Source: an uncultured Candidatus Poseidoniales archaeon
GTDB taxonomy: Archaea; Thermoplasmatota; Poseidoniia; Poseidoniales; Thalassarchaeaceae
Direction of reading: 5' to 3'
Assembly (NCBI GenBank): GCA_964645485.1
Contig: CAZXZO010000002.1
Span: forward strand, 62,478-126,477
Length of the DNA stretch: 64,000 nt
The position numbers and the translations under genes are program-made. Below are positions 205-63,520 of this stretch, piece by piece. Numbering within the stretch: position 1 is the first letter of the stretch; every line of letters starts with the position of its first letter. The notes beneath the pieces were generated by a model that was not told the origin of the DNA, made no database searches, and saw only the letters and a list, made by a program, of their open reading frames with translations.

Positions 205-2814
205 TTGAAGAAGCAGGTCGTTGGTGGAAGCGATCATTCACTTGCTGAATTACGTCATGAAATCACTGGTACAGATTCACCATCTTTGGAGAGAGCCGGC
301 CAGATTACTAAGAATTTGACTAACGAAGAAGGTCTTCGCCGTAGCCTTGGAAGAGAACGCCGTCTTAGGTTGAAAGACCAAGCAGAAAGGCTCTCCGCTG
401 CTAAGGGCTCAATGGGCCGTGCTCTCCAGATGGAACACCAATCTATTCTCAAGAATCTTGAGTCAGAAATGCGGAGTGAGATGGAATCAGAACTTTCGCG
501 TCTAGAGAAAGAAACACTTGGTCGGGAAGAAGAGATATTACGCGAAGAATTGGATATGAGGCTTGAGCGTGAAGAGATATCACTTCGAGAGCAACTAGAG
601 GTTGAACGGGAACGCCGCCTAAGTGCAAGCCGTGAACAACTTCACTCACAACTTTCCAGTGATATGAACAAAGAGTTTGACCGTCGTCGCGCATTTTTAC
701 AGGAGAAAATGGAAATTGAGGCAACCCAAGCACTCCAGGAACAGTTGTCGAGTCTAGAATCAGAATTGAAAGAAGAGATGGAAGTTCAATTAAAGTCTGA
801 AGAGACACGCCAAGCAGAAATCATTGAAGCTGAGCAACATTCACGTCTTTCAGAAAGGGAAATACAACTCCGGGATGGAATTCGCCGTCGCCTTGAGGGG
901 CAATTACGCAGTCGTCTGCGCGCTCGCGAGGCTCGCCTCAGAAGCGAGTATGAACATCGCGCCCATAGAATGGAGGAAGAGATTGCAAAAGACCTCCAAG
1001 ACGAACTAGAGCAACGCCTTACATCGGAAACCGAACAACTCGAAGAGCGAATGCAACAAGATTTGGAGTTAGCAGTTGCGCGTAAACGCGATGAAGTGCG
1101 AGCATCCATTCTGAATGAACTTCAAACCCAGTATGGTGAACGAATCGCAGAACGGAAACAGCGTCTCCGTGAGCGTTATGACTTAACTTTCAGTCAGTCA
1201 ATTGATGAGATTGAACAAGCTCTAAACATCGAATTGGAAGATGTCCTTCAAGATCGAATGGAGGGTGAATTTGAAACTTACCGCCGTTCACGAGAATCTG
1301 AAATATCTAGTCGCCTATCTCGATTCCGCCATGATAGAGAAATTGAACTCCGACAACAACTAACTTCATCCTTTGAAGGTAGGAAGCAAGAATGGATTGA
1401 CCAATTAGAACAAGAATACCGCTCTAAGGAGTCAGCAGTACAACGACAAATTATGGCTGAGATTGATGCTCGAGTTCGTAACGAAAAGATATCTCAAGAG
1501 ACCTCACTTGACCTGTTAAAGCAGGAGACCTCAATGGAACTTGAGGTAGAGATGGAATCAAGACTACGAGAGTTTAGATCTAGAAAGGAAACAGAAGTAA
1601 CCGATCAATTAGAACGCCAACTTTCCAAGCGTGAAGAAATTATGCGTAACAAAGCCCTCATTGAAGTTCGCCGCCGTGAATCCGAAATACGTGCAGAAAT
1701 TGAAGCACAACTTGCAGTAAAGAGAGCAGAAATTCGTGAGCGTCTTGCAACACTTGAGCAACGCTCAGAAGAATTCAAACAAGTTGCAGAAGAAAAGATT
1801 CGAACACAACTTGAGCGTAATCTTGTTTCAGAGGAAGATTTGGAAGACCAAGTTCGCTTGCAGCAGTTAGAGGATGAGGCTGAAAACCTTGAGAATCAAG
1901 ATACAGTATTGGACCGCCGCCAGAGATGGATGGGTGCATTGGAAGGTGCCCAGGGCCAGATGCCTGAGACTGCTGTTCGCCAAGGTGGCCTTGTTGGAGG
2001 GGGCAGATTAGGACAACCAAAGTCATCAACTCTTGGTGGGCCTGCAAAGGCCTCGGCACCCCCCGCTCTTGGAGCAGGTGCTGGAGGGCGATTAGCACCT
2101 TCACGAGCACCTATTGGACAGGCTTCGGCAGCAACAGCGGCCACGCCAGCAACAAAAATTCCCAAACCATCAATCGGTTCAACTATGGCTGAGCGCTTAG
2201 CACCAGTCAGAGCGCCTATCAGGGTTGAAGGTGAAGCACCTAAAGAAACCCGTTCTCTAAGTGATATTGCAGAAGAAGTAGGACTACCTGCGCTTGAAAC
2301 AAAAGAACCCGAAGAACCTTCAGGCATTGACTCACCAAAAGAGACAATCGAAGATGATTGGGATAAGGATGAAGAATTAGAAATCAGTTCAGTAATTTCA
2401 GAATTAGCTACTCTAGAAGAAATAGATGCTCAATCTCAGTCACAACCTGAAGAACCAACCCCTGTATCAAGAGGTCCGCCAGGTGGAGGCAAATTGATTC
2501 GCGATGACGTGAATACAGAGGGAAGTGTAGAGACAAAACCAGTGCGCGGTCCACCCGGGGGCGGAAAACTAGTTCGAGAAAGGCCGGAACCTTCTGAGAG
2601 GAGTCCTCCAATTGATACCACAGATATTCCAGCAGAGATATTAAAGCCAGTTCGAAAGCCAGTATTACAACCAAAGAAAATTGAAACTGCTAACATTATT
2701 TCAATGACAGACCCCGTCAAAGTACTAGTTCCTGAAGCGGCTCCAAAAGTTGCAAAACTAACTCCGGTGACCACCACTTTAACTCCAATACAAAGTTCAG
2801 AAGAAGAAGAATGA
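205..2814 (+). CDS. Large E/R/L/Q-rich coiled-coil protein with a Pro/Gly/Ala-rich disordered C-terminal third; function unknown
   Basis: 869-codon ORF with a TTG start at 205. About 590 aa show heptad-like charged sequence. The C-terminal part has a duplicated RGPPGGGKL(I/V)R unit and ends SSEEEE. Confidence 0.8.
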   Translation: MKKQVVGGSDHSLAELRHEITGTDSPSLERAGQITKNLTNEEGLRRSLGRERRLRLKDQAERLSAAKGSMGRALQMEHQSILKNLESEMRSEMESELSRLEKETLGREEEILREELDMRLEREEISLREQLEVERERRLSASREQLHSQLSSDMNKEFDRRRAFLQEKMEIEATQALQEQLSSLESELKEEMEVQLKSEETRQAEIIEAEQHSRLSEREIQLRDGIRRRLEGQLRSRLRAREARLRSEYEHRAHRMEEEIAKDLQDELEQRLTSETEQLEERMQQDLELAVARKRDEVRASILNELQTQYGERIAERKQRLRERYDLTFSQSIDEIEQALNIELEDVLQDRMEGEFETYRRSRESEISSRLSRFRHDREIELRQQLTSSFEGRKQEWIDQLEQEYRSKESAVQRQIMAEIDARVRNEKISQETSLDLLKQETSMELEVEMESRLREFRSRKETEVTDQLERQLSKREEIMRNKALIEVRRRESEIRAEIEAQLAVKRAEIRERLATLEQRSEEFKQVAEEKIRTQLERNLVSEEDLEDQVRLQQLEDEAENLENQDTVLDRRQRWMGALEGAQGQMPETAVRQGGLVGGGRLGQPKSSTLGGPAKASAPPALGAGAGGRLAPSRAPIGQASAATAATPATKIPKPSIGSTMAERLAPVRAPIRVEGEAPKETRSLSDIAEEVGLPALETKEPEEPSGIDSPKETIEDDWDKDEELEISSVISELATLEEIDAQSQSQPEEPTPVSRGPPGGGKLIRDDVNTEGSVETKPVRGPPGGGKLVRERPEPSERSPPIDTTDIPAEILKPVRKPVLQPKKIETANIISMTDPVKVLVPEAAPKVAKLTPVTTTLTPIQSSEEEE

Positions 2815-12618: not shown

Positions 12619-13257
12619 TCATTCTTCTTCTTCGAAGTCTTCTTCGTTTATTTCGCCTGAATTCAACTTTAGATATGATGGGAGTCCCATCAATTTGTCA
12701 AACGTCCGTGAAAGAATGAGCTCATCCAACCGGGGGCTTGTGCGTGCTAGGAATTGAACTGGTATGTTGATTACACCGTTTTCTAATCTGTATCTTCTTC
12801 TTAGATTTCCTCTAGCCTTTACTTGTACGCCGCGATATGTGCGCTTAATTTTGACTAGCCCAATGACTACGCCGAGGTCTTCACCCTGGGTGTCAAGAAC
12901 TGCTCTGTCAAGTAGTTCATCGGGGGCGTATAATTTTTCATTGATACGAACTGTGTTTCGCCATCTGCGTTGCAATTCCCTCATTGACTTCGTAAGTTTG
13001 ATACTCCCATCCGACTGAATGCTGTGAAGGAGTTCTTTTGAAAGTGGAGCGAACTCAGCAGGCTTGCGCATAAATTCGTCCGCAACACCTGGCTCAACCT
13101 GTAATCTGAAAGATTGGACTCTTTCTTCATTGGGGTGATATCTCTCCCCCACTATTACTCCAACTCGCGTTTGTTTCACGTAAACTTCTCGTTGTAACAA
13201 TTCCTGTATTCTAAATGATTCATCTGTCATATTTTTTCCCTCTCTATTACCGTGCAT
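12619..13257 (-). CDS. Hypothetical protein with two PRC-barrel-like segments, ends EEEE
   Basis: ELLQREVYVKQTRVGVIVGE and ELLDRAVLDTQGEDLGVVIGLV resemble PRC-barrel starts. The true start may be the second Met (MTDESF). Confidence 0.55.
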   Translation of the reverse strand: MHGNREGKNMTDESFRIQELLQREVYVKQTRVGVIVGERYHPNEERVQSFRLQVEPGVADEFMRKPAEFAPLSKELLHSIQSDGSIKLTKSMRELQRRWRNTVRINEKLYAPDELLDRAVLDTQGEDLGVVIGLVKIKRTYRGVQVKARGNLRRRYRLENGVINIPVQFLARTSPRLDELILSRTFDKLMGLPSYLKLNSGEINEEDFEEEE

Positions 13258-13753: not shown

Positions 13754-15316
13754 TTGCTCTACTCACAGCATAAATTGATGAGTGCACTCCTCTTCCCAAT
13801 TCACATGGAAGATTCGTTCTTGTCTTTGTTAGATGAAATTCGGAAGAGGTCAGGACCCCGCCAAACTGTTGGCTTGAAGGACTCGGTCATCACTGAATTT
13901 GCTGCATCAGATCAAAATCTTGTAGACGCCATTTCAGAAGCATCAAAAAATCACCAAGATTACTCGGCTGAATTTGGTCCAGATTTTTTAATGATGGATG
14001 AGTCGGAATTAATCAAAACCTTGCAATCAGATTTCATAAATTTTTATCCTTCTGCAACAGTGAATCCCTATGTTGCAATTGCTGCTCGTGGCCCTTGGAT
14101 AATCACTTCACATGGAGCTGTTGTCCACGACAACGGTGGATATGGGATGTTAGGTGGTGGTCATGGCCCGAATAATGTCATCAACGTCATGTCAAAAAAT
14201 TGGGTTATGGCAAATGTCATGACTGCTTCTTTTAGCCAGAAGAAGTTAACCGATGCATTACGCAGAGAAGTTGGTCATACTCGGGGCACTTGTCCCTTTT
14301 CAAAATTCATCTGTGTAAATAGTGGATCTGAATCAGTGACACTCGGTATGCGAATTGCTGATGTAAATTCCAATAATATGACTGGTCCAGGTGGACGTCA
14401 TGAAGGTAAACCGATTAAGATAATCGCATTGAAACAAGGATTCCACGGTAGAACACAACGACCGGCTTCAATATCGGATTCTTGTAAAAAAGGATACATA
14501 GATAATCTTGCTACTTTCAGAAAGCGGGATAATGTTATCATCGTAGAACCAAACAATGTTGAAGAATTACAATCAGCATTTTCAAGAGCTGAGGAAGAGA
14601 ACTTTTTCATTGAATTATTAGCCTTAGAACCAGTGCAGGGTGAGGGCTCTCCTGGACAAGCAGTAACTCGTGAGTTTTACGATGAAGCAAGAAGGTTAAC
14701 TTCCGAACATGGAAGCATGTTGTTAGTTGATTCCATACAGGCTGGATTCCGCGGCAAAGGCTGTCTTTCAATTGTCGATTATCCCGGATTTCAATCTGCT
14801 GAAGCCCCAGACTTAGAGACATGGTCAAAAGCACTCAATGCTGGGCAATTCCCTCTTTCTGTTGTAGGATTATCAGAGCGTGCTGCGCAATTGTACGTTG
14901 TTGGAATTTATGGAAATACCATGACAACAAATCCCCGTGCACTCGAAACAGCAATAGAAGTACTCGACAAGATTACTCCAGAAGTACGGCAAAACATTGT
15001 TGAAAAGGGAGATGAATTTCTCACAAAACTTGCAGGATTACAGAAAGAATTCCCTAATGAAATCACCCTAGTTCAAGGTTCAGGTCTGCTTCTGTGCGTA
15101 GAATTAGATCCAGAGACTCTTCCTGTTATTGGCTTTGATTGTGTAGAGGAGTGGTGTAGATTAAACGGCCTTGGTGTAATTCATGGCGGAAAGAATGCAC
15201 TCAGATTCACCCCTCACTTTGGAATAACATCCAAAGAGATTGATTTGATAGTAGACTTGGTTAGATGTTGTCTGATTGAATTTACAATGGGTAAAGTGCA
15301 TCAAATTGCAAAATAA
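13754..15316 (+). CDS. Class-III (PLP-dependent) aminotransferase with N-terminal extension
   Basis: VNSGSESV, LKQGFHGRT, LLVDSIQAGFRGKG and TWSKAL (putative PLP Lys). An ATG alternative start is at 13778. Confidence 0.85.
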   Translation: MLYSQHKLMSALLFPIHMEDSFLSLLDEIRKRSGPRQTVGLKDSVITEFAASDQNLVDAISEASKNHQDYSAEFGPDFLMMDESELIKTLQSDFINFYPSATVNPYVAIAARGPWIITSHGAVVHDNGGYGMLGGGHGPNNVINVMSKNWVMANVMTASFSQKKLTDALRREVGHTRGTCPFSKFICVNSGSESVTLGMRIADVNSNNMTGPGGRHEGKPIKIIALKQGFHGRTQRPASISDSCKKGYIDNLATFRKRDNVIIVEPNNVEELQSAFSRAEEENFFIELLALEPVQGEGSPGQAVTREFYDEARRLTSEHGSMLLVDSIQAGFRGKGCLSIVDYPGFQSAEAPDLETWSKALNAGQFPLSVVGLSERAAQLYVVGIYGNTMTTNPRALETAIEVLDKITPEVRQNIVEKGDEFLTKLAGLQKEFPNEITLVQGSGLLLCVELDPETLPVIGFDCVEEWCRLNGLGVIHGGKNALRFTPHFGITSKEIDLIVDLVRCCLIEFTMGKVHQIAK

Positions 15317-15348: not shown

Positions 15349-16044
15349 TTGTATGAATCAACAATCAACGAAGGTGAGGGTATGCCAAAAATGGTAAACC
15401 TTCAAGGAGATGAGAGCGTTTTCTTTTCGTCATTAAAAGAGCGGCTTGAGAGGATAGAAATCGATACTGATTCAGCTGATGGAGTCCACATCGTATGCTG
15501 GGATAATGGTCCAGCAGTCAAATGTGATTTAGTAATCCGCCCCTCAACAAGTAAACCGTACCCAAGCGAGTCTCACTGTGAATTGGTATTGCACGATTTG
15601 TATATCCCTGGTGGGTCTGGAAAGTGGGGTCCTAAGGAAATAGAAGAGCAAATTTCGTGGTTGAACAATCCTATTGAAAAGAGGCCCGAAGGAGAGCCAA
15701 GGCACTGGATTCACGTTCGTGATGTAGTGGATATGCTTTCAGTTTTTTTTACTAATCTACCAAGTGGTGTGGTTGATGTGAGTGGCAGACGTTGTTGGAG
15801 CCATGAAGCGATGTCAAGTGAATTGGAGATGCTCTTCAAGAGGGTCAAAGCAGCGGAATCAAAAACTTTCCAATTAGATAACTTAAAAATTTTTGAGCCA
15901 AAAACCGAGCCAATGGTCTCACCACCTAGGCCTAACCTTGGCCCACTTCATGAGGCGTGTCAAAAGGCTGGATTGACGGGATGGCACCCTTCAATTCCGT
16001 TTAGAATTGGATTGATGGAATGCATTGCTCATCAATTACTTTAG
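15349..16044 (+). CDS. Hypothetical protein resembling the C-terminal half of NAD-dependent epimerases but lacking a Rossmann GxxGxxG
   Basis: RHWIHVRDVVDML and LGPLHEA...GWHPSIPFRIGLME resemble epimerase/dehydratase C-terminal motifs. Confidence 0.55.
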   Translation: MYESTINEGEGMPKMVNLQGDESVFFSSLKERLERIEIDTDSADGVHIVCWDNGPAVKCDLVIRPSTSKPYPSESHCELVLHDLYIPGGSGKWGPKEIEEQISWLNNPIEKRPEGEPRHWIHVRDVVDMLSVFFTNLPSGVVDVSGRRCWSHEAMSSELEMLFKRVKAAESKTFQLDNLKIFEPKTEPMVSPPRPNLGPLHEACQKAGLTGWHPSIPFRIGLMECIAHQLL

Positions 16045-16059
16045 TGCAATTTTGTATTT

Positions 16060-17073
16060 TCATTGTTCTGCGAAGAGACTTGCACCTAACAGAGGTAAGA
16101 GTAAGGAAGCATCCCCCTCCACAACAATTTGAGGCGCTTCCGCACGAATTTTCCCCCAACTAATTGCTTCTTTGAGTCTTGCACCCGATAATGAACCATC
16201 ATGTTCTGAGGCGGTAGTGATTTGCACTGCAGAATCCAGTCCTCCTCGATATTGATTCCACCAAATAACATGGTGTTTTGAGATTCCTCCTCCAACCATC
16301 AAGGCATGGGAGGAGTCTGTGGTCCAAATTAAGTCAGAGAGAATTTGTTGATCTTCTAACAAATCAAGATTGAAGTCCCTTGCTTTTTGTCGATGCATGA
16401 ACAATTGAGCTCCAATAGAACCATCATAAATACCTGGTATAATAATCGGAATTCGATGCTTGGCGGCCCAATGAAGTAAACTTGATTCATCATCAATCCG
16501 ATCCCCCAAAGCCCAGCATAATTCTACACTCCCGAATCCTTGCCACGGGTTTTCGGGATTTTCTGAGCGCCTCTCATCGTCAATTTCTTGTAATATTGGC
16601 ATTACGATTTTCTCAATGATATCTCCATAACTTGCATTTGGAACAATCACGTTTCCTAATCGATTCAAGCCCTGTTCACCTAGTTCGATATCATCTAACT
16701 CGAATGCTCCATGATAATAATCACTGAAACTTCTGGCAATGTCATGGTCAAGAGTTCCACAAGTTGTGACAACAACATTGAATCTTTTTCTTTTCAATGC
16801 TTCAACGAAGAATCCACGTGTTCCGGTAGCACAAAGGCAGGCAGGAAAAGAAAGCCAGTTCAATTGGCTATTCCCTTCTTCACTTGATGACTCATCAAAT
16901 TGCTGAAACATATCTGCTAGAATGTCGCGGGCTAGGGCTAATTTAGTTGCTGTAAAACCACCAGCAGTTGCCATTTGGTCCAACAGTTTGGAGGCATTTT
17001 CAGTGGTAGAGAAATCATAATCCACCACTGGCAAATCAAAGTCTTCTTGGTTTACCATGACATCACCCGACAA
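16060..17073 (-). CDS. dys: Deoxyhypusine synthase
   Basis: GGGISKHHVIWWN...ITTASEHDGSLSGARLKEAISWGKI. Confidence 0.93.
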   Translation of the reverse strand: MSGDVMVNQEDFDLPVVDYDFSTTENASKLLDQMATAGGFTATKLALARDILADMFQQFDESSSEEGNSQLNWLSFPACLCATGTRGFFVEALKRKRFNVVVTTCGTLDHDIARSFSDYYHGAFELDDIELGEQGLNRLGNVIVPNASYGDIIEKIVMPILQEIDDERRSENPENPWQGFGSVELCWALGDRIDDESSLLHWAAKHRIPIIIPGIYDGSIGAQLFMHRQKARDFNLDLLEDQQILSDLIWTTDSSHALMVGGGISKHHVIWWNQYRGGLDSAVQITTASEHDGSLSGARLKEAISWGKIRAEAPQIVVEGDASLLLPLLGASLFAEQ

Positions 17074-17097
17074 GCCGCCTCAAAATGAATACAGCGG

Positions 17098-17988
17098 TTA
17101 TTCACAAATCCTCTCAATTTCCTTTATCACTTCATTTGCGACATCAATTCCAGTTGCTCTTTCTATTCCCTCAAGCCCAGGTGATGAATTTACTTCCATC
17201 AACAATGGCCCTCGGCTAGACTCCAATAAGTCGACTCCACCGAATTGAATGTTTAGGGATTTACAAGCGTCAATACATATTCTCTCAATATCTGGTTCAA
17301 GTTCTAATTGGTCACCGGTTCCACCTCGGTGAATATTGCTACGGAAGTCATCACCCTTTCCCGTTCTCCTCATTGCGGCTACTACTTTATCGCCAACAAC
17401 AATTGCTCTGATATCAGTTCCCTTGGATTCTGCGATATACTCTTGAACAATTATTGGTTGATGTAATCTAGCAAGCACATCAATAACTGATTCTGCACTT
17501 GCAACAGTATCACAGCGCATCACTCCAATTCCTTGAGTCCCTTCTAATAATTTCAGAACTACAGGTGGACCGCCCACTGTTTTGATACACGGGTGTAAAT
17601 CGGCTGCTCCTCTTGCATATGCTGTTCTAGGAATGGGTAATTCCACTGCGGCAAAACGCTGTAGAGCACGTAATTTATCCCTACTCGCCCCAATTCCATT
17701 ACTTGGGTTGAGGACTGGGACGCCTGCGGCCTGAAATTGTCGGAGAATGGTTAATCCATGGCGGGTGATTGAAGCCCCAATTCTAGGCACAATACAATCC
17801 ATTGGTTGCACAATTTTGTCACCATTATAGAGAACAGTTGCCCCATCGGGAGATAAATCAATTGTACATCTTGTTGGGTTGAGATAACTAACTCCATGCC
17901 CCTCTCTTCTAGCAGCAGCAGCCAATCGAGTTGTGCTGTAGAGTTCAGGCCCTTGGGTCATGATGACAATCTCAAGTCTCCGCCCCAT
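17098..17988 (-). CDS. rimK: RimK-type ATP-grasp alpha-L-glutamate ligase
   Basis: VVLKLLEGTQGIGV, IVQEYI, DFRSNIHRGG and GVDLLESSRGPLLMEVNSSPGLEGIE align closely with my recollection of E. coli RimK. Confidence 0.9.
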   Translation of the reverse strand: MGRRLEIVIMTQGPELYSTTRLAAAARREGHGVSYLNPTRCTIDLSPDGATVLYNGDKIVQPMDCIVPRIGASITRHGLTILRQFQAAGVPVLNPSNGIGASRDKLRALQRFAAVELPIPRTAYARGAADLHPCIKTVGGPPVVLKLLEGTQGIGVMRCDTVASAESVIDVLARLHQPIIVQEYIAESKGTDIRAIVVGDKVVAAMRRTGKGDDFRSNIHRGGTGDQLELEPDIERICIDACKSLNIQFGGVDLLESSRGPLLMEVNSSPGLEGIERATGIDVANEVIKEIERICE

Positions 17989-18034
17989 AACCTGACCTTC
18001 AGAGGCTCATTGTTTTCAAAATGACCGATTTGAG

Positions 18035-20443
18035 CTATCCCTGATTTTCCAATTGGAAAATTCGATCTCTCAATTGGGCAGCCTTCTCAAATTCAAGTCT
18101 ACTTGCTGCCAGTTTCATCTGTTTTCCAAGTCTTTCAATTAGTCTTTCAAGATCTACGTCCTTTTCTGTATCATCACTAGTTAGGGTTGCTTTATCTTGT
18201 TCCAAAATTGAAGATGCAACACTCGCCCACGAAGGTTGGCTTACATTGCTAACCGTTTCGCCCTCAGAACCCCATCCATCTGAGCCAAGGTCTAATCGTT
18301 TTGCCAAATCTCTTTCATCTTTAATTTTACCACTCTGACCGGTGGTTCCACCAACAAATCTCTTACCGCCACTGCTACCAGTACCAGCAGTCCCAGCCAA
18401 CAATTCCTCTGCTTCAATTCCCATTGTTGGCAATTCTTTGATGATTGTTTTAGGGACAATATTGTTCTTCAAATTGAATTCTTCTTGTCGTTGCCGCCTT
18501 TCAATTGTTTGTAAAATAGATGTACTCATCGCGTCAGACATTGAATCAGCATACAATAATACTCTACCGTTTTCGTTACGCGAAGCTCGGCCAATTGTTT
18601 GTAGAAGTGACCTCTCATTACGCAAGAAACCCTGACGGTCGGCATCAAAAATTGCAACCAAGGATACTTCTGGAATGTCAAGGCCTTCACGTAACAAATT
18701 AATTCCTACAATCACATCGATGTGACCAATTCGCAAAGCCTTGATGATTTCAGACCTTTCAATTGTATCGATTTCAGAATGAAGGTAATGTGCTTTCACG
18801 CCCATTCTCTGTAAATAGCTGGAAACTTCTTCAGCGAATTTAATAGTCAAAACAGTAACTAATACTCGTTCACCATTCGTTACACACTTGTTAATCTCGT
18901 CAAGTAAATCTTGCACCTGTCCCTCGGTAGGGCGAACCTCAATTTCCGGATCAAGTAACCCGGTTGGTCTGATTTCCATATGCACAACCCCGTCAATTTT
19001 TTCAAGAGATTTGAGAATACTTGGGGTCTTTTTTGGTTTTTGTAATTCAGGTTCAACCACTCCACCACCTCCTGGTACATGGAGCAACTCTTGGGGGACG
19101 TCTTGCCCAGTCACTTCTGCAAGATGTCTTAGTTCCCTTTCTCCTGGTGTTGCTGAGACGTACAACATCTGTGGGACAAGGTTTTGAAATTCATCTATGC
19201 GTAAAGGCCTATTATCTGCCGCAGAAGGTAATCTGAAACCGTGCTCAATCAAAGACATCTTTCGCGAATGGTCACCTGCGTACATTCCTTTTAGTTGAGG
19301 TAATGTCACATGGCTTTCATCCATGATGACAAGAAACTTTTCAGGGGAACCATGGAATTGATTAGCTGCCGCAGCAAAGAAATCAAGCAAACAGAATGGT
19401 CTTTCTCCATATGTTCTGCCATCAAAATGCATGGAATAATTTTCTATGGCTTTGCAATGACCAGTTTCTCTAAGCATTTCTAATTCAAACTTAGTCCTAG
19501 TCTCAAGTCGATGGGCTTCCATCTCTTTGCCTTCTTTCTCCAATTCATCAGTTCTCTCTGATAACTCAAATTCAATATCTTCCAATGCTTGGGCGAATCT
19601 CTCTGGGCTAGTCATGAAAAATTCTTTTGGATGGACCCACGCTTCCTCTAAATTATCAAGAGGTTCCCAAGAAACAGCTTCACAAACCTGAATTCTTGTA
19701 ACTCCATCAAAGTCGAATCGAATCCGAAGTGGGTCATCCCTACTTGGCATCCAAACATCAACAACCTCGCCACGGCAACGGATTTCACCTCTAGTGATTT
19801 CACCTGTTACTCGTTGATATTGCAACTCTACCAATTGTTTGACTAAATCCAAAGGTTCGATAGATTGGCCGACGTATATTCTTGCATGTTGTTTTAGGAA
19901 TGTTTCTGGGGGATTGAGTCCGTAGATTGCGGACACTGTTCCAATGGTAATGACATCAGGTCGTGAGACAAGTGAAGCCACCGTTGCGAATCTTTCCTGC
20001 TCAATCCGCTCGTTCATCTGTAATTCTTTATCGATGTATAAGTCGCGTTTTGGTAAATATGCTTCAGGTTGATAATAGTCATAATGACTAACAAAATACT
20101 CCACGGCATTTTCAGGAAATAGTGAAGACATTTCCTGCCAGAGTTGACGCGCCAACGTCTTATTGTGGCTGAGAATTAAAGTGGGTATATTCAGTCTTTC
20201 AATGATATGCGCCATAGCGAATGTTTTACCCGAGCCAGTAACACCAAGAAGGACACCTCTTTCCTGTGAATTATTGAATTGAGAAATTAATTTTTCAATT
20301 GCTTGTTTTTGGTCGCCTGCGGTGTTGTATTCAGAATGTAATTGGAAGCATGCTACCGAGGGGTCTAACCAGTCTAGAGCAGCACCTTCAATTGCTTTAG
20401 ACAAATCAAAATGGTCGACGTCTTTTTCTGTCATAATATCCAC
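18035..20443 (-). CDS. uvrB: Excinuclease ABC subunit B with extended G/S/T-rich linker
   Basis: GVTGSGKTFAMAHIIE, DESHVT, and the C-terminal UVR motif LEFEKAAQLRDRIFQLE. 802 aa. Confidence 0.95.
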   Translation of the reverse strand: MDIMTEKDVDHFDLSKAIEGAALDWLDPSVACFQLHSEYNTAGDQKQAIEKLISQFNNSQERGVLLGVTGSGKTFAMAHIIERLNIPTLILSHNKTLARQLWQEMSSLFPENAVEYFVSHYDYYQPEAYLPKRDLYIDKELQMNERIEQERFATVASLVSRPDVITIGTVSAIYGLNPPETFLKQHARIYVGQSIEPLDLVKQLVELQYQRVTGEITRGEIRCRGEVVDVWMPSRDDPLRIRFDFDGVTRIQVCEAVSWEPLDNLEEAWVHPKEFFMTSPERFAQALEDIEFELSERTDELEKEGKEMEAHRLETRTKFELEMLRETGHCKAIENYSMHFDGRTYGERPFCLLDFFAAAANQFHGSPEKFLVIMDESHVTLPQLKGMYAGDHSRKMSLIEHGFRLPSAADNRPLRIDEFQNLVPQMLYVSATPGERELRHLAEVTGQDVPQELLHVPGGGGVVEPELQKPKKTPSILKSLEKIDGVVHMEIRPTGLLDPEIEVRPTEGQVQDLLDEINKCVTNGERVLVTVLTIKFAEEVSSYLQRMGVKAHYLHSEIDTIERSEIIKALRIGHIDVIVGINLLREGLDIPEVSLVAIFDADRQGFLRNERSLLQTIGRASRNENGRVLLYADSMSDAMSTSILQTIERRQRQEEFNLKNNIVPKTIIKELPTMGIEAEELLAGTAGTGSSGGKRFVGGTTGQSGKIKDERDLAKRLDLGSDGWGSEGETVSNVSQPSWASVASSILEQDKATLTSDDTEKDVDLERLIERLGKQMKLAASRLEFEKAAQLRDRIFQLENQG

Positions 20444-28219: not shown

Positions 28220-28978
28220 GTGATATTCATGGAAGAAGGCACAATTGTCTACATTGATTACGACCTGTTTGAGGTTGATTCCGGAAAACTAATTGAGACC
28301 ACTCGTGAGGAGACTGCAAAGTCAAACGACGTTCATGAAGAGTCACGAACTTATGAGCCTCTGTGCACCACTATTGGTGCTGGAGCGTTGATTCCTGGTT
28401 TTGAAGAAAGCCTAGAAGAAGCAGAAGTTGAAACTGACTACGATATTGAGATTTCACCAGACAAAGCATACGGAGAGCGTGACCCGGGTGCTGTTGAAAT
28501 GTTGGGCCCACAACAATTGGCTCGCCAAGTAAGGGACCCTGACAATTTACAAGTTGGAGGACCAGTCGAAATCGGTGGCCGAAAAGGTACCTTAGTCATG
28601 TTCCGTGCTGGTCGGGCACGAATTGATTTCAATCACGAATTAGCGGGTAAATCACTGCGTTATAATTACCGAATCACAAAGGTTGTTGAAGAGAAGGACG
28701 AGATGGTAATGACTCTTCTAAAGATGTCAACAGGTTCTGATGACTTTGAAGTAGAATTTGACGGCGATGATGTATCTATCACAATTCCAGAGTTCCTTGG
28801 ATATGACCAATCATGGGGTATGGCAAAGTTTCAACTCATTCGTTCACTACGTGACACTGTTGGTGCCAAGACAATCGTGTTTAGAGATGTACACCAATTC
28901 AGAGAGGCTGCAGAAGAAGAGGAAGAAGAACACGTCCACGATGAAAACTGTGACCACGACCATGACGAAGAAGAGTGA
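28220..28978 (+). CDS. FKBP-type peptidyl-prolyl isomerase (SlyD/long archaeal FKBP-like) with His/Asp/Cys-rich tail
   Basis: DFNHELAGKSLRYNYRI. Tail EEEEEHVHDENCDHDHDEEE. Confidence 0.85.
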   Translation: MIFMEEGTIVYIDYDLFEVDSGKLIETTREETAKSNDVHEESRTYEPLCTTIGAGALIPGFEESLEEAEVETDYDIEISPDKAYGERDPGAVEMLGPQQLARQVRDPDNLQVGGPVEIGGRKGTLVMFRAGRARIDFNHELAGKSLRYNYRITKVVEEKDEMVMTLLKMSTGSDDFEVEFDGDDVSITIPEFLGYDQSWGMAKFQLIRSLRDTVGAKTIVFRDVHQFREAAEEEEEEHVHDENCDHDHDEEE

Positions 28979-49358: not shown

Positions 49359-50201
49359 ATGGCGGCAGGCAAGAAGCGGAAAAATTCGAAGCGAGGTTTG
49401 AAGGCATATTTTGGAGAAATTTGGGAGGATAAAAGAGACCATCATTTGACAATTTTGGGAATGCTAACAGTTCTTACTTTTGCCATGATTTTATGGGCAA
49501 TAGCATTCTTCTCAATGTTTGCTTCAAACGCACAACAGGAAGCCAATGGATGGGCAGATTTGACCGCAGCAACTTGGGTTGGAGTCTTACTTGCATTTGT
49601 TCTTCTATTGTTTGTTATTCCGGAGTTTTTCCATTATCTCGGAGTACGTAATTCACTTGTGGATATTCTTGAGACAGACTCTCGGGCAGAGTTACAAAAG
49701 AACAGCAAAGAATTAGATGAAGGGGCCAAACTACTCGCCGGCGCGTGGCCTGCTAGAATTGCTGCCAAAAAGGTGGAGTTAGGTTTACGTCGCGATATGC
49801 CGGATGGCATGTCATTATCCGACACCGGTAAAACCTCATTAATTGGCACTTGGATGAATACTAAATATTCCAGATTAGCCCAGAGATTCCCCGATTCGAA
49901 CCTACTCAAAGACCCTGGAATAAATAAAATTATTATTTTCAGTTCACTGACAGGATTACTCCTATTTGTCTATAATGCCTTAATTGGACTAGCGCGTGAG
50001 TCGATAACTAGTCCCCGTAATATGACAGTTGATTTTACTTCCATCATTACAGGTGGTACATACAATGCAACTTGGGCTCCACACTTTGATTTGGTTGGTG
50101 TACTAATGATTGCAATGTTTGCAACAATTCTTTTCATGACTAGTCCAGCATCCAGTGAAGAGGATGAATCAGATAGTGACTCTATTCAAGAAGAAGAATG
50201 A
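49359..50201 (+). CDS. Membrane protein of unknown function, ends IQEEE
   Basis: Basic N-terminus, about 4 hydrophobic helices, acidic Ser-rich tail. Confidence 0.7.
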   Translation: MAAGKKRKNSKRGLKAYFGEIWEDKRDHHLTILGMLTVLTFAMILWAIAFFSMFASNAQQEANGWADLTAATWVGVLLAFVLLLFVIPEFFHYLGVRNSLVDILETDSRAELQKNSKELDEGAKLLAGAWPARIAAKKVELGLRRDMPDGMSLSDTGKTSLIGTWMNTKYSRLAQRFPDSNLLKDPGINKIIIFSSLTGLLLFVYNALIGLARESITSPRNMTVDFTSIITGGTYNATWAPHFDLVGVLMIAMFATILFMTSPASSEEDESDSDSIQEEE

Positions 50202-50213
50202 ATGAGGCGGTAA

Positions 50214-51158
50214 TTGATGGCCACACCATTAGGCTGGATTCGCGAAGCATTGCTTGCAATCGGATTAATTTCGCTTTTAGTAATTGGTTTGTGGGCAACC
50301 ACAGGTTCTCTTCCGCCAATGGTAGTGGTTGAATCATCATCTATGATGCATAATACTGAGGGAGAAGTTGGGGCAATTGACCCAGGTGACCTGGTTCTTG
50401 TGATGTCAACATCTCGCCGAACGAAGATTGTCAGCATGGCAGAAGCAATGGAAGTCGGTGGTGAATGGGAGGGATGGGAATATCATGGCAAACCCGGAGA
50501 TGTGATTATCTACAAGAAAAATGGTGGAATTGACACGCCCGTCATTCATCGTGTAATTCTTGAAGCAGTAGCAAATAGTACAATCTCACCAACTGATCGT
50601 TCACTTGGACTCTGTCCGCAGGGAAGTAGTTGGGACCCGATATCAATTGATGCTGATGGGCAGGCAGGAACATGTGTTCTCACATGGGATGCTCCGGGAA
50701 CTACAGTATTGAATCAAGCCTCAATAAACTGGTCCTTTGACAATGTGGAATGCCCTTCAAACCCCCATGGTTTGATGGTTCAGGAGTGGGACCCAGGGCA
50801 CGCAGGATACCTTACTTTGGGGGACAATAACCGTTGTGATGTGGACCAAGGATCTCAAGCCTATCCCTTGGCAGGTGGACTTACTGATGAGAACGGAAAT
50901 CGAGTTACTGCTGTACGTTCAGACTGGGTAGTTGGGGTTGCGGGTGCTGAACTACCATGGCTTGGTACAATCAAACTAGCAGCCTCATCAAATTCGGCCC
51001 AAGTAACAGGTCATAGTTGGAGAATGCTGGGAGCAACAGCGGTCATTCTTTTACTTGGGACATTTGTCGTTGAGCAGGCTACTGAAAAGTTGTTGATTGG
51101 TTCGCCTGAAATCTCTCAGGCGAATAAAGAGCAGGAAAAAAATTCCGAAGAAGAGTAA
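50214..51158 (+). CDS. Sec11/archaeal-type signal peptidase I (S26B) with inserted Cys-containing domain and C-terminal TM
   Basis: VVESSSMMH (Ser box), GDVIIYKK...PVIHRV (His box), and LTLGDNNRCDVD (GDNN box). Confidence 0.8.
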   Translation: MMATPLGWIREALLAIGLISLLVIGLWATTGSLPPMVVVESSSMMHNTEGEVGAIDPGDLVLVMSTSRRTKIVSMAEAMEVGGEWEGWEYHGKPGDVIIYKKNGGIDTPVIHRVILEAVANSTISPTDRSLGLCPQGSSWDPISIDADGQAGTCVLTWDAPGTTVLNQASINWSFDNVECPSNPHGLMVQEWDPGHAGYLTLGDNNRCDVDQGSQAYPLAGGLTDENGNRVTAVRSDWVVGVAGAELPWLGTIKLAASSNSAQVTGHSWRMLGATAVILLLGTFVVEQATEKLLIGSPEISQANKEQEKNSEEE

Positions 51159-55844: not shown

Positions 55845-57992
55845 ATGGCAGGAACAGCAGTTTACATCACTTGGGTAACTGCCTCTTTACTCGGCGGGAT
55901 TCTATTGATGCCGATTTTCCGTCCTGCTGGAAAACGAGTTACATTGGCTGGATTTGTTGATATGTTTCGCCGCTACTGGCTACATATTGCATTAGTTTTC
56001 AGCATCTATGTTTGGAAAGATTTGCTTGATGGCTTAGACCGTATTTTGATGGCTAATACCCACCTCAATATGACGCCATTTGTTTATGCTATTGAGGGCG
56101 ATTTAGTTTTGTTGGTCCAACAGACATTCCTCAATGAGATGTTGACTTTTGTCTTGACTCATTATTATGTTGCAGGTTATATGCTATTGACATATACGGC
56201 CTCACTCTATTTCACATATTTTGATGACCGCTGGATGGCAGATAGAGTCTTGTTATCGATGTTCTTTGTCTATGCGCTAGCAGTGCCCTTCTACCTATTC
56301 TTCAATGTTAGAGTGACGGGAGACCATATTCCTGAAATGGAAACTTTGGCCTATCACCTTACCCCGGAGATCCAAACTTGGTTCACGAGGATTGACCCGT
56401 TCACAAATGGCATGCCTAGTCTTCACATTGGTATTCCGTTCACTGTATGGTTGGGACTTCATCGTTGGGACCACGATGAAAGATGGAAGAAATATCGGCA
56501 ATTTGTCGGTGTCTATATCCTAGTCACAGCATTTACAATCATCTATCTTGGAATCCACTGGTTTGTTGACATCATTGGTGGGATAATTGTATCCTTCTTT
56601 GCGGTTAACTTAGCAGATAAGTATCATGCTTGGTTGTGGTATCGGTTTGATGAGAGAACTTTCAATGCCAGAGTTGCATGGTTGTTAGCAGATTTCAACA
56701 ATCCAAAACGAGTTCTATCTAGTTGGATTTCTAGATCATTAAATTGGTTGAAAACACCATCAACAGCACAAACTGGAACAGTCGTGATGTTGCTGCTAGC
56801 AACAACTGGAGGAGTGCTGTTGTATGATGCAACTCACCAAGATTTCCCAGCCGAGGGAGTAACTCATCCAGAAGCGGCTGCAGGTGCTGACGGCTGGTTA
56901 GTTGCACTTGATGCAAACGAAAATGGTAACTTAAGTGCGGTCATAATTGATATTGAAAACGATAGAACATATCACGATAGCCTCAATTTGAACGAGGATG
57001 GTAATCAATCACAATGGGGTGTTGTAAACGCGTCAACAGAAGTGTTGATTTCAGAAAATCATGCAATCGTTTGGCAAGGTTACAGGATAATTACTCTGAA
57101 GTTCTCAAATCCAGGCTCTCACGCCTATGGTAGGACGACAGGTCCACTGTACACCGACCTTGCTCTTCTCGATGACTCAGAAGATGAGCGAGCCAAGTTA
57201 TTCGCGATTGATGATGGTGTAGTAATTGACTTGCAAAGCACAGAATATAATGAGGTATTCACACCAATTCCTGATGATGATGTAATTCTCATTGATGGGG
57301 GTGGGAATAGTTTAGCTTGGGTTACCCAGAGTTCACCAATGACTGCCAATATCCTCTCACTAGATGGTGTGCAGAGTAGTCTATCTGTTGAAGTCAATGT
57401 TACTGTTGATTCAGCAAAAGATGAACAAGTGCTAGCACTCACTGGTACCAACGTTGACTACGTGAACGCGAGTATAACTGGAATTGCATTTGACAAAAAT
57501 CACATAGTAGCCGAGGTGAATTTGTCAGCAGTTAGCCGTTTAGTTTTGGTGAATCTTGATACGGGAGAGCAGCGAATTATCGGTGACCCTCTTTTCCCTG
57601 TAGCAAACCCTTCAATTGGCCATGGTGTGGTTGCTTGGCAACATAAGTGGGGGCTCAATTCAATAGACCCAAATAATGCTGAGTTAGACTGGGATGTGAA
57701 GTATCACATTATCTTGGAAAATCATTCCTATCAACTTCACACTGAGGATGAGTTGAACCAGACTGAGCCACAGGTCATGGAAGGATACATTGCTTGGCTA
57801 CAAGATAGTGGTGGTGAAGAACCACCAGAGGTGATAATTTACAGCCTTGAGGAAACATTTGAGCCGTATTCATCGCGAACTTTGCAAATAGCGATAATTG
57901 CTCTAATCCCTCTGTTATCTCTATGGATGATTCAAAAACAAAGAGAAAATTTGGATTCACTAGACGAAGATTCACCCGACGAAGAAGAATGA
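55845..57992 (+). CDS. PAP2-superfamily membrane domain fused to a beta-propeller-like ectodomain, terminal TM and -DEEE tail
   Basis: GMPSLHIG and GIHWFVDIIGG (PAP2 C2/C3-like). Recurrent (I/V)(A/V)W(Q/L) blade-like motifs in residues ~340-680. Confidence 0.72.
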   Translation: MAGTAVYITWVTASLLGGILLMPIFRPAGKRVTLAGFVDMFRRYWLHIALVFSIYVWKDLLDGLDRILMANTHLNMTPFVYAIEGDLVLLVQQTFLNEMLTFVLTHYYVAGYMLLTYTASLYFTYFDDRWMADRVLLSMFFVYALAVPFYLFFNVRVTGDHIPEMETLAYHLTPEIQTWFTRIDPFTNGMPSLHIGIPFTVWLGLHRWDHDERWKKYRQFVGVYILVTAFTIIYLGIHWFVDIIGGIIVSFFAVNLADKYHAWLWYRFDERTFNARVAWLLADFNNPKRVLSSWISRSLNWLKTPSTAQTGTVVMLLLATTGGVLLYDATHQDFPAEGVTHPEAAAGADGWLVALDANENGNLSAVIIDIENDRTYHDSLNLNEDGNQSQWGVVNASTEVLISENHAIVWQGYRIITLKFSNPGSHAYGRTTGPLYTDLALLDDSEDERAKLFAIDDGVVIDLQSTEYNEVFTPIPDDDVILIDGGGNSLAWVTQSSPMTANILSLDGVQSSLSVEVNVTVDSAKDEQVLALTGTNVDYVNASITGIAFDKNHIVAEVNLSAVSRLVLVNLDTGEQRIIGDPLFPVANPSIGHGVVAWQHKWGLNSIDPNNAELDWDVKYHIILENHSYQLHTEDELNQTEPQVMEGYIAWLQDSGGEEPPEVIIYSLEETFEPYSSRTLQIAIIALIPLLSLWMIQKQRENLDSLDEDSPDEEE

Positions 57993-62749: not shown

Positions 62750-63520
62750 TTGTCGGATAGCGATATACCATTAGTTGAGGCAAAAGACCTTGGAAAGGCA
62801 TTTGGCGATTTTGTCGCTCTCCATCCATTGAATGTCAAGGTGGCAGCGGGAGAATTTTTCGGAGTTTTCGGCCCCAATGGAGCAGGTAAATCCACTTTCA
62901 TCAAGTTGCTCACAGGTCAACTTAGACCAACTATGGGTGGTGCTAGAGTTTTGGGAATTAATGTTAGAGCAGACCCAAGAATGGTGAAGGCTAATGTTGG
63001 AATTGTTCCTGAATCAGAAAGCCCACCATCATTTCTCACAGCCGCCGAATATCTTGAATTCGTGGCTCGCCTGCGAAACTTAGATGAGATTCCAGAAAAA
63101 GTTACCCATTGGCTAGATTGGTTTGGTATTCTAGACAAGCGAAACACCTTGTGCAAAGATTTGTCAAAAGGACAACGCCAAAAAGTAATGCTCGCTGGTG
63201 CATTTATCCATAACCCCAAGTTACTTTTCCTAGACGAACCATTCGTCAACCTCGACCCAATTTATCAGCGAAAGTGCCGTAATCTTTTGATGGAAATAGT
63301 TGCTGACGGGGGCACAATTTTTCTCTGCACTCATATTCTTGAAGTCGCTGAAAGAGTGTGTACAAGAGTGGCTGTTATCGACCGAGGACATGTGCTTGCA
63401 GCGGGAAGCATTGATGAATTGAAAGACAATGATGATGAGACTCTTGAGGATGTTTTCATCAGACTTGTGGGGTCATCATTTGATGAAATCGAGGCGATGG
63501 AAGGGAGTGAGGAGGAGTGA
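62750..63520 (+). CDS. ABC transporter ATP-binding protein (ABC-2 type)
   Basis: GPNGAGKST, LSKGQRQK, and LLFLDEP. Ends GSEEE. Confidence 0.9.
   Translation: MSDSDIPLVEAKDLGKAFGDFVALHPLNVKVAAGEFFGVFGPNGAGKSTFIKLLTGQLRPTMGGARVLGINVRADPRMVKANVGIVPESESPPSFLTAAEYLEFVARLRNLDEIPEKVTHWLDWFGILDKRNTLCKDLSKGQRQKVMLAGAFIHNPKLLFLDEPFVNLDPIYQRKCRNLLMEIVADGGTIFLCTHILEVAERVCTRVAVIDRGHVLAAGSIDELKDNDDETLEDVFIRLVGSSFDEIEAMEGSEEE

Follow-up and report, generated by a model that had tools for sequence, protein, structure and literature searches.

The window analysed here, a stretch of 64,000 nt (C2:62478-126477) from a Poseidoniales metagenome-assembled genome (MAG) of 1.94 Mb (55 contigs, 82% complete), carries a short rimK gene whose assignment is solid: the product is a RimK proper with all motifs intact. 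The gene is accessory, a second rimK that occupies one old site, and where it has been kept it is under very strong purifying selection. Its product is predicted, with good support from the sequence, to be an active RimK-type alpha-L-glutamate ligase, and the reading that we rank first, tentatively and with this enzyme-level claim included, is that it extends one or a few Glu-terminated protein tails. An unexpected by-product of the analysis is a conserved (S)-E-E-E-COOH motif at the end of many proteins of the same organism, which is more novel than the gene itself.

The short gene encodes a RimK proper

The gene (17098..17988, minus strand) has an ATG start and encodes a short RimK-type ATP-grasp alpha-L-glutamate ligase of 296 aa. 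Pfam searches identified a Rimk_N domain (PF18030, 95.3 bits, residues 5-99) followed by a RimK domain (PF08443, 181.1 bits, residues 103-291), and the Rimk_N plus RimK ATP-grasp architecture is therefore present at full length. The best NCBIfam model is PRK10446 (NF007764, S6--L-glutamate ligase), with 286.5 bits, a score that remains under the equivalog cut-off of 331 bits; with the family model TIGR00768 (rimK_fam) the protein reaches 240 bits, above the cut-off of 143. Identity to E. coli RimK is 46% over 289 aa, and the alignment to the E. coli structure 4IWX extends over residues 2-293 of the short RimK with 265.8 bits. Pseudomonas RimK chains also align, and LysX/ArgX chains from the PDB give only 63-87 bits. 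The segments LEGTQGIGV, DFRSNIHRGG and GVDLL...EVNSSPGLEGIE match 4IWX column for column, the glycine-rich loop is kept as KLLEGTQGIGV, and the ATP, Mg and glycine-rich-loop motifs (VLKLLEGTQGIGV, QEYI, DIR, FRSNIHRGG, GVDLL and EVNSSPG) are identical or conservative in that structure. The initial annotation had read the ORF as RimK along its whole length, and the domain models, the family models and the structural alignment all bear this out. The nearest RimK homologues of the short copy come from marine MAGs labelled 'Euryarchaeota/Thermoplasmata archaeon', and RimK-like archaeal genes are already annotated as such in public records.

Since the fold and the TIGR00768 subfamily model are shared with cofactor and carrier ligases, a ligase of the CofF/MptN or LysX/ArgX type could have been mis-assigned to RimK. 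We regard this as very unlikely. The short RimK scores below the cut-offs of the MptN model NF040720 (164.7 vs 350 bits), the LysX model TIGR02144 (135.4 vs 275.6 bits) and the CofF model TIGR04443 (69.3 vs 300 bits), and the host genome contains only two PF08443 genes, both of RimK type. An IQ-TREE phylogeny of 66 sequences was rooted on Thermoplasmatota LysX, the identity of this outgroup being confirmed by TIGR02144 scores above the cut-off. The branch dividing the short RimK from LysX has a support of 100/99 and the RimK clade proper, the short RimK included, one of 97/97; the 66 sequences comprise no reference MptN or CofF, and those two are set apart by the HMM scores. A quick tree of 107 rows agrees with this topology. 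The initial annotation had assigned the ORF to the RimK branch, and not to LysX/ArgX, CofF or MptN, on its motifs, and had proposed a phylogeny as the check; its assignment holds, against LysX by the trees and the HMM scores and against MptN and CofF by the HMM scores only.

Within the RimK clade, the short clade (100/100) shares a crown clade (96/85) with the E. coli RimK group and with a separate clade (97/100). A long RimK found in Poseidoniales (100/100) is nested within the latter among bacterial RimK, and its neighbours there are RimK+TrkA_C proteins of ~400 aa from Planctomycetota and others. This placement shows that the short copy is genuinely bacterial-type and not a recent duplicate, made within the order, of the long copy.

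The long RimK of the host genome, of 401 aa, is encoded ~52 kb upstream of the window's rimK (G000:C2:27255-28100; locus L001:1150-2355, minus strand). It belongs to the same family as the short copy, with 45% identity, 268.7 bits with PRK10446 and the same motifs, intact in both proteins. Unlike the short copy, it lies in a separate clade, it is present in 59 of 61 relatives from three families of the order, where the short copy is confined to two genera, and it carries an additional C-terminal domain of regulatory type. This domain gives weak TrkA_C/Castor matches (RCK_C/TrkA_C-like), and similar homologues of ~400 aa have Pfam TrkA_C (PF02080) in their precomputed domain lists, which suggests that the long RimK may be a ligand- or K+-regulated glutamate ligase. 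The Pfam TTL model gave only a marginal match, on the long RimK. RimK-type genes are not rare in the phylum, as the PRK10446 model matches 53 of 201 Thermoplasmatota genomes at E<=1e-45.

The short rimK occupies a single insertion site between uvrB and DHS

The deoxyhypusine synthase (DHS) gene (16060..17073, minus strand; Pfam DS 307.8 bits; PRK01221 378.7 bits, cut-off 350) lies directly 3' of rimK. The initial annotation had described rimK as lying 24 nt downstream of DHS on the same strand; the strand and the gap stand, but the order is the reverse, rimK being on the 5' side (uvrB -> rimK -> DHS). The gap is 24 nt when counted from the TTG start of DHS, and it widens to 39 nt should translation in fact begin at the ATG of codon 6. 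The spacer (17074..17097, minus strand) contains a GAGG Shine-Dalgarno-like element and is too small for a separate archaeal promoter, so that rimK is likely co-transcribed with DHS. The spacer between uvrB and rimK has 46 nt (17989..18034, minus strand) and includes an A/T-rich TTTTGAAAA ~25-34 nt ahead of the rimK ATG, a possible TATA-like box. Metatranscriptome contigs with 95-100% identity cover parts of rimK and also the uvrB 3' end into rimK, one of them spanning positions 17836-18096 with the uvrB-rimK spacer within; none of these contigs spans the rimK-DHS junction.

The upstream flank of the site is uvrB (18035..20443, minus strand; NCBIfam PRK05298, 840 bits). Its product has 802 aa compared with the 653 positions of the profile, and an extra Gly/Ser/Thr-rich acidic segment of ~100 residues separates the UvrB domain, which ends at residue 671, from the C-terminal UVR motif, which starts at 766. 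On the other side of DHS, a conserved hypothetical protein of 231 aa without a Pfam match (15349..16044, plus strand) is always convergent on DHS in this neighbourhood, and is preceded by a class-III aminotransferase (13754-15316, plus strand), identified by its domain match. That match begins only at residue 106, and the aminotransferase may have an N-terminal extension. The conserved order of the neighbourhood is SDR-uvrB-[rimK]-DHS-hyp-aminotransferase, where hyp is the hypothetical gene.

The short rimK was found in 19 of 401 genomes of the order, belonging to two genera (g1 and g3), and in all 20 short-copy loci of these genera uvrB-rimK-DHS is followed by the convergent hypothetical gene. 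At 11 loci from eight genera (g2, g4, g5, g6, g8, g11 and g12, together with the congener G003) uvrB directly adjoins DHS without rimK. A short rimK fragment with 97% identity, at a contig edge (G509:C128:2-616) in a genome of another family with 4% contamination, is probably a mis-binned contig and not a third host lineage. Two database proteins from high-GC contigs of distant relatives (P0014 and P0015) are 54-55% identical to the short RimK; their genes also stand in the arrangement SDR-uvrB-rimK-DHS-hyp-aminotransferase, with DHS and UvrB 59-64% identical to those of the window.

In the two distant high-GC loci we also observed a small ORF of 81-82 aa between rimK and DHS (L144:7002-7247 and L145:7064-7312), with a conserved N-terminus, MRIR..F...VLHE.G.GLRMT, and an overlap with the DHS start as called. 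This ORF may represent a genuine small gene, a leader of DHS or simply an artefact. A role as LysW-like carrier was rejected, since the ORF does not resemble LysW and has no counterpart in the window.

Taken together, the loci show that the short rimK is an accessory second copy at one old site. The insertion is either old and repeatedly lost, or has been moved between lineages by recombination through the homologous flanks; either way, a single insertion site means that the adjacency to DHS reflects one event. This bears directly on a functional link to DHS, in which the ligase would modify aIF5A, DHS itself or another part of hypusination or translation. The 24-nt same-strand gap, with the likely co-transcription, and a synteny kept in 22 of 22 carriers examined would favour such a link; however, all carriers stem from one insertion site and count as a single event, and uvrB and DHS are adjacent without rimK at the 11 loci in eight genera, congener included. 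Moreover, a DHS-like gene lies within 6 kb in only 1 of the 80 bacterial rimK loci listed, and neither aIF5A, which ends in ...RIIRDH, nor DHS, which ends in ...LFAEQ, has a Glu terminus. aIF5A is ruled out as an acceptor by this C-terminus. The tandem with DHS, to which the initial annotation had drawn attention as a pairing of protein-modifying enzymes, thus carries no functional signal, and we consider a functional link highly improbable.

The patchy distribution would also be accounted for by a dispensable passenger gene without current function, given its presence in 19 of 401 genomes and its absence from a congener with an intact site. Among close congeners (dS about 1.1-1.25), dN/dS was 0.010-0.026 for rimK, 0.030-0.041 for DHS and 0.042-0.067 for UvrB, values taken from the closer pairs, as more distant pairs, with saturated dS, were left out. 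Since dN/dS of rimK (0.01-0.03) is lower than that of DHS, an essential neighbour, a decaying passenger gene is excluded. The catalytic motifs are all intact and the gene has been kept at 54% identity in distant relatives, and a passenger of any kind is hardly credible.

The host genome encodes no bS6 and no RimB-like protease

To our knowledge, RimK has been understood only as a modifier of the bacterial ribosomal protein S6, and archaea are known to lack bS6. A search of the 82%-complete host genome with PF01250 (Ribosomal_S6) returned no match at E<=1, in line with the initial annotation, which had noted that archaea lack this substrate. The acceptor of the short RimK can therefore not be bS6. 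The RimB-like retropepsin (PF05618) was also searched for in the host genome and is absent, and the host genome thus has no RimABK module with RimB together with or near rimK. PF05618 genes are present in 4 of 16 congeners (G001:C19:34774-35157, G006:C32:671-1054, G002:C8:14649-15032 and G003:C78:6502-6885), among them G003, which is without the short rimK; in G001, the one congener checked, the RimB-like gene is on another contig than either rimK.

A conserved EEE motif ends about 3% of the proteins

C-terminal ends were counted in a simple set of 1503 ORFs with a minimum length of 80 aa, which together account for 92% of the host genome. Proteins ending in Glu amount to 17.7%, compared with 6.8% Glu overall; 78 proteins end in EE, where 6.9 are expected, and 43, about 3% of the proteins, end in EEE, where 0.47 are expected. 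Terminal runs of one, two, three and four Glu number 188, 35, 36 and 7, which is a peak at exactly three, while internal runs decay geometrically, and only 4 proteins have at least three terminal Asp. Ser is four-fold enriched directly before the terminal Glu run, and a TM-like segment is found in 57% of the EEE carriers vs 37% of other proteins. The Glu codons of the tails are mostly GAA, at the genome-wide rate, and an origin of the tails from Shine-Dalgarno sequences (GAGGAGG) is ruled out on this ground.

The initial annotation had pointed to many proteins of the window that end in -EE or -EEE, and the genome-wide excess extends this observation. Within the window, two genes have EE tails and seven have EEE tails: 205-2814(+), 12619-13257(-), 28220-28978(+), 49359-50201(+), 50214-51158(+), 55845-57992(+) and 62750-63520(+). 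The EEE carriers are functionally mixed, with an FKBP at 28220-28978, a PAP2, an ABC ATPase at 62750-63520 and unknowns among them. Carriers of EE or EEE tails also include eL43, eS24, Nop10, Alba and TatA, which were recognised by eye and not by HMM. The acidic C-terminal extensions end in ...GSEEE in eL43 (G000:C7:41829-42236), ...SGGEE in eS24 (C26:17130-17519), ...KEEEE in Nop10 (C17:40149-40391) and ...DDSEE in Alba (C2:144765-145076). These four tails resemble the end of the E. coli S6 tail, ...DSEE.

The same peak was observed in 800 kb of the genome G038, which belongs to another family and has the long form as its only RimK; terminal runs of one to four Glu number 67, 9, 22 and 2 there. 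Eight reciprocal-best pairs between the host genome, G000, and G038 have EEE in the host protein; the G038 partner ends in EEE in six of them, in EE in one and in E in one, against a background EEE rate of 4% among pairs, and the residues before EEE diverge between the orthologues. Nop10 ends in ...KEEEE and ...VTEEE in two Poseidoniales families and in ...DENKD in a non-Poseidoniales relative. The retention of EEE in orthologues whose preceding residues have diverged indicates that the motif is under selection. The literature searched contained no paper that deals with EEE tails or with RimK of Marine Group II.

The EEE motif belongs to the whole order and does not track the short rimK

A phylum-wide sample comprised 42 Poseidoniales genomes, in which the pattern GARGARGARTRR has a median density of 32 per Mb, and 159 other Thermoplasmatota, in which it reaches 9-10 per Mb. 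In the sister families within the class, which have no RimK, a single EEE-type tail was counted among 308 ORFs. The EEE motif thus characterises the Poseidoniales as an order and does not track the short rimK. Among Poseidoniales, the density is 36.8 per Mb where the short copy is present and 33.2 per Mb where it is absent, but the nominal p=0.015 is driven by one genus, as congeners without the short rimK have 37.3 and the carrier genus g3 has 28.9 per Mb. The initial annotation had proposed co-occurrence of rimK and EEE-tail frequency across related genomes as a test, and the short copy fails it, as carriers and non-carriers throughout the order have the same density.

Outside the order, the GARGARGARTRR density was 10.5 per Mb in carriers of RimK-type genes vs 9.2 in non-carriers (p=0.27), and a count in G171, a genome with two RimK-type genes, gave only 2 EEE tails among 397 ORFs. 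RimK-type genes elsewhere in the Thermoplasmatota are therefore not accompanied by EEE tails, and an association outside the order was rejected as support. The ratio to a reversed-pattern control was higher in carriers (p=0.005), with a control that is crude and lineages that are not independent. The EEE motif co-distributes with the long RimK, but this coincidence counts as one phylogenetic event only. Of the two RimK, the long one, which the initial annotation had missed, is the better candidate for any action on the EEE tails.

Discussion

By analogy with solved RimK enzymes, the short RimK would bind ATP-Mg and lengthen a Glu-terminated chain one L-glutamate at a time, the terminal alpha-carboxylate being activated as an acyl-phosphate. 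The acceptor would be one or a few Glu-terminated protein tails from the pool of proteins ending in EE or EEE, which as candidates may include eL43, eS24, Nop10 and Alba with their S6-like acidic tails, and the short copy would work side by side with the order-wide long RimK. We infer both the chemistry on protein tails and the identity of any acceptor. The polyglutamylation of EEE-tailed proteins, put forward as a hypothesis in the initial annotation, is chemically plausible, and the extension of one or a few tails is our leading candidate, held with less than firm confidence. Several results weigh against this reading: at the genus level the EEE density is equal with or without the short copy, the genome with only the long copy (G038) has the same EEE peak, EEE tails do not match RimK-type genes in other Thermoplasmatota, the host genome is without a RimB-like trimming protease, and the PRK10446 score is below the equivalog cut-off.

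RimK enzymes extend the C-terminal Glu of RpsF and also make free poly-alpha-L-glutamate (PMC7343187, PMC11957791), so a protein target is not required. The explanation that we rank second, and consider rather unlikely, is accordingly that the short RimK has no protein target and builds oligo- or poly-alpha-glutamate from free Glu, or else attaches glutamate to a small acidic metabolite. In a marine cell whose proteome is acidic, the product might, for instance, be an osmolyte or a K+ counter-ion, a role to which we give the same low weight. In favour of this explanation, the RCK_C/TrkA_C-like domain of the order-wide paralogue is of a kind typical of K+ or ligand sensing, and rimK (K05844) is reported to be enriched in brackish bacteria (PMC10219603). 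However, no export or hydrolase partner lies nearby, computation does not distinguish free polymerisation from protein tailing, and the very low dN/dS fits either reading.

Beyond the extension of one or a few tails lies a broader and still less probable proposal, a proteome-wide tail code of the Poseidoniales, in which the selected (S)-E-E-E-COOH on ~3% of proteins would be both primer and recognition site for RimK, with the long RimK as general writer and the short copy as accessory writer in some lineages. The carriers of such a code would include Nop10, eL43 and many membrane proteins. If the proposal were true, prokaryotes would have their own equivalent of the polyglutamylation known from tubulin, with dozens of proteins as its targets. 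The eukaryotic TTLL polyglutamylases of tubulin are ATP-grasp-type enzymes that extend acidic C-terminal tails and offer a functional analogy for this proposal; unlike RimK, they belong to a different family and make gamma-linked branch points on internal Glu.

Among characterised enzymes, the closest comparison is with the RimK of E. coli (4IWX/4IWY) and Pseudomonas (7QYR/7QYS, 5ZCT), known as S6--L-glutamate ligase and poly-alpha-L-glutamate synthetase. The short RimK resembles the E. coli protein in its 46% full-length identity, its Rimk_N and ATP-grasp domains, its nucleotide, Mg and Gly-rich-loop motifs and its place in the same clade. It differs from both in that its host is without bS6 and, in the genome analysed, without RimA and RimB, in its position between uvrB and DHS, and in its score below the equivalog cut-off. 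The LysX/ArgX enzymes (1UC8, 3VPD), gamma-glutamyl carrier ligases for LysW, share the ATP-grasp fold and the RimK_fam model and ligate onto the C-terminal Glu of a protein, but are about 25-30% identical to the short RimK, give 79-87 bits as PDB chains and form a separate clade.

These results place the short gene as a true RimK that is accessory, strongly constrained, confined to one insertion site and uncoupled from hypusination. The pool of candidate acceptors is now concrete, namely a conserved EEE-COOH on ~3% of the proteome in the most abundant planktonic archaea. Should one or the other RimK prove to extend them, this would be the first broad protein polyglutamylation in prokaryotes; if neither does, the motif still needs another reader and merits study in itself.
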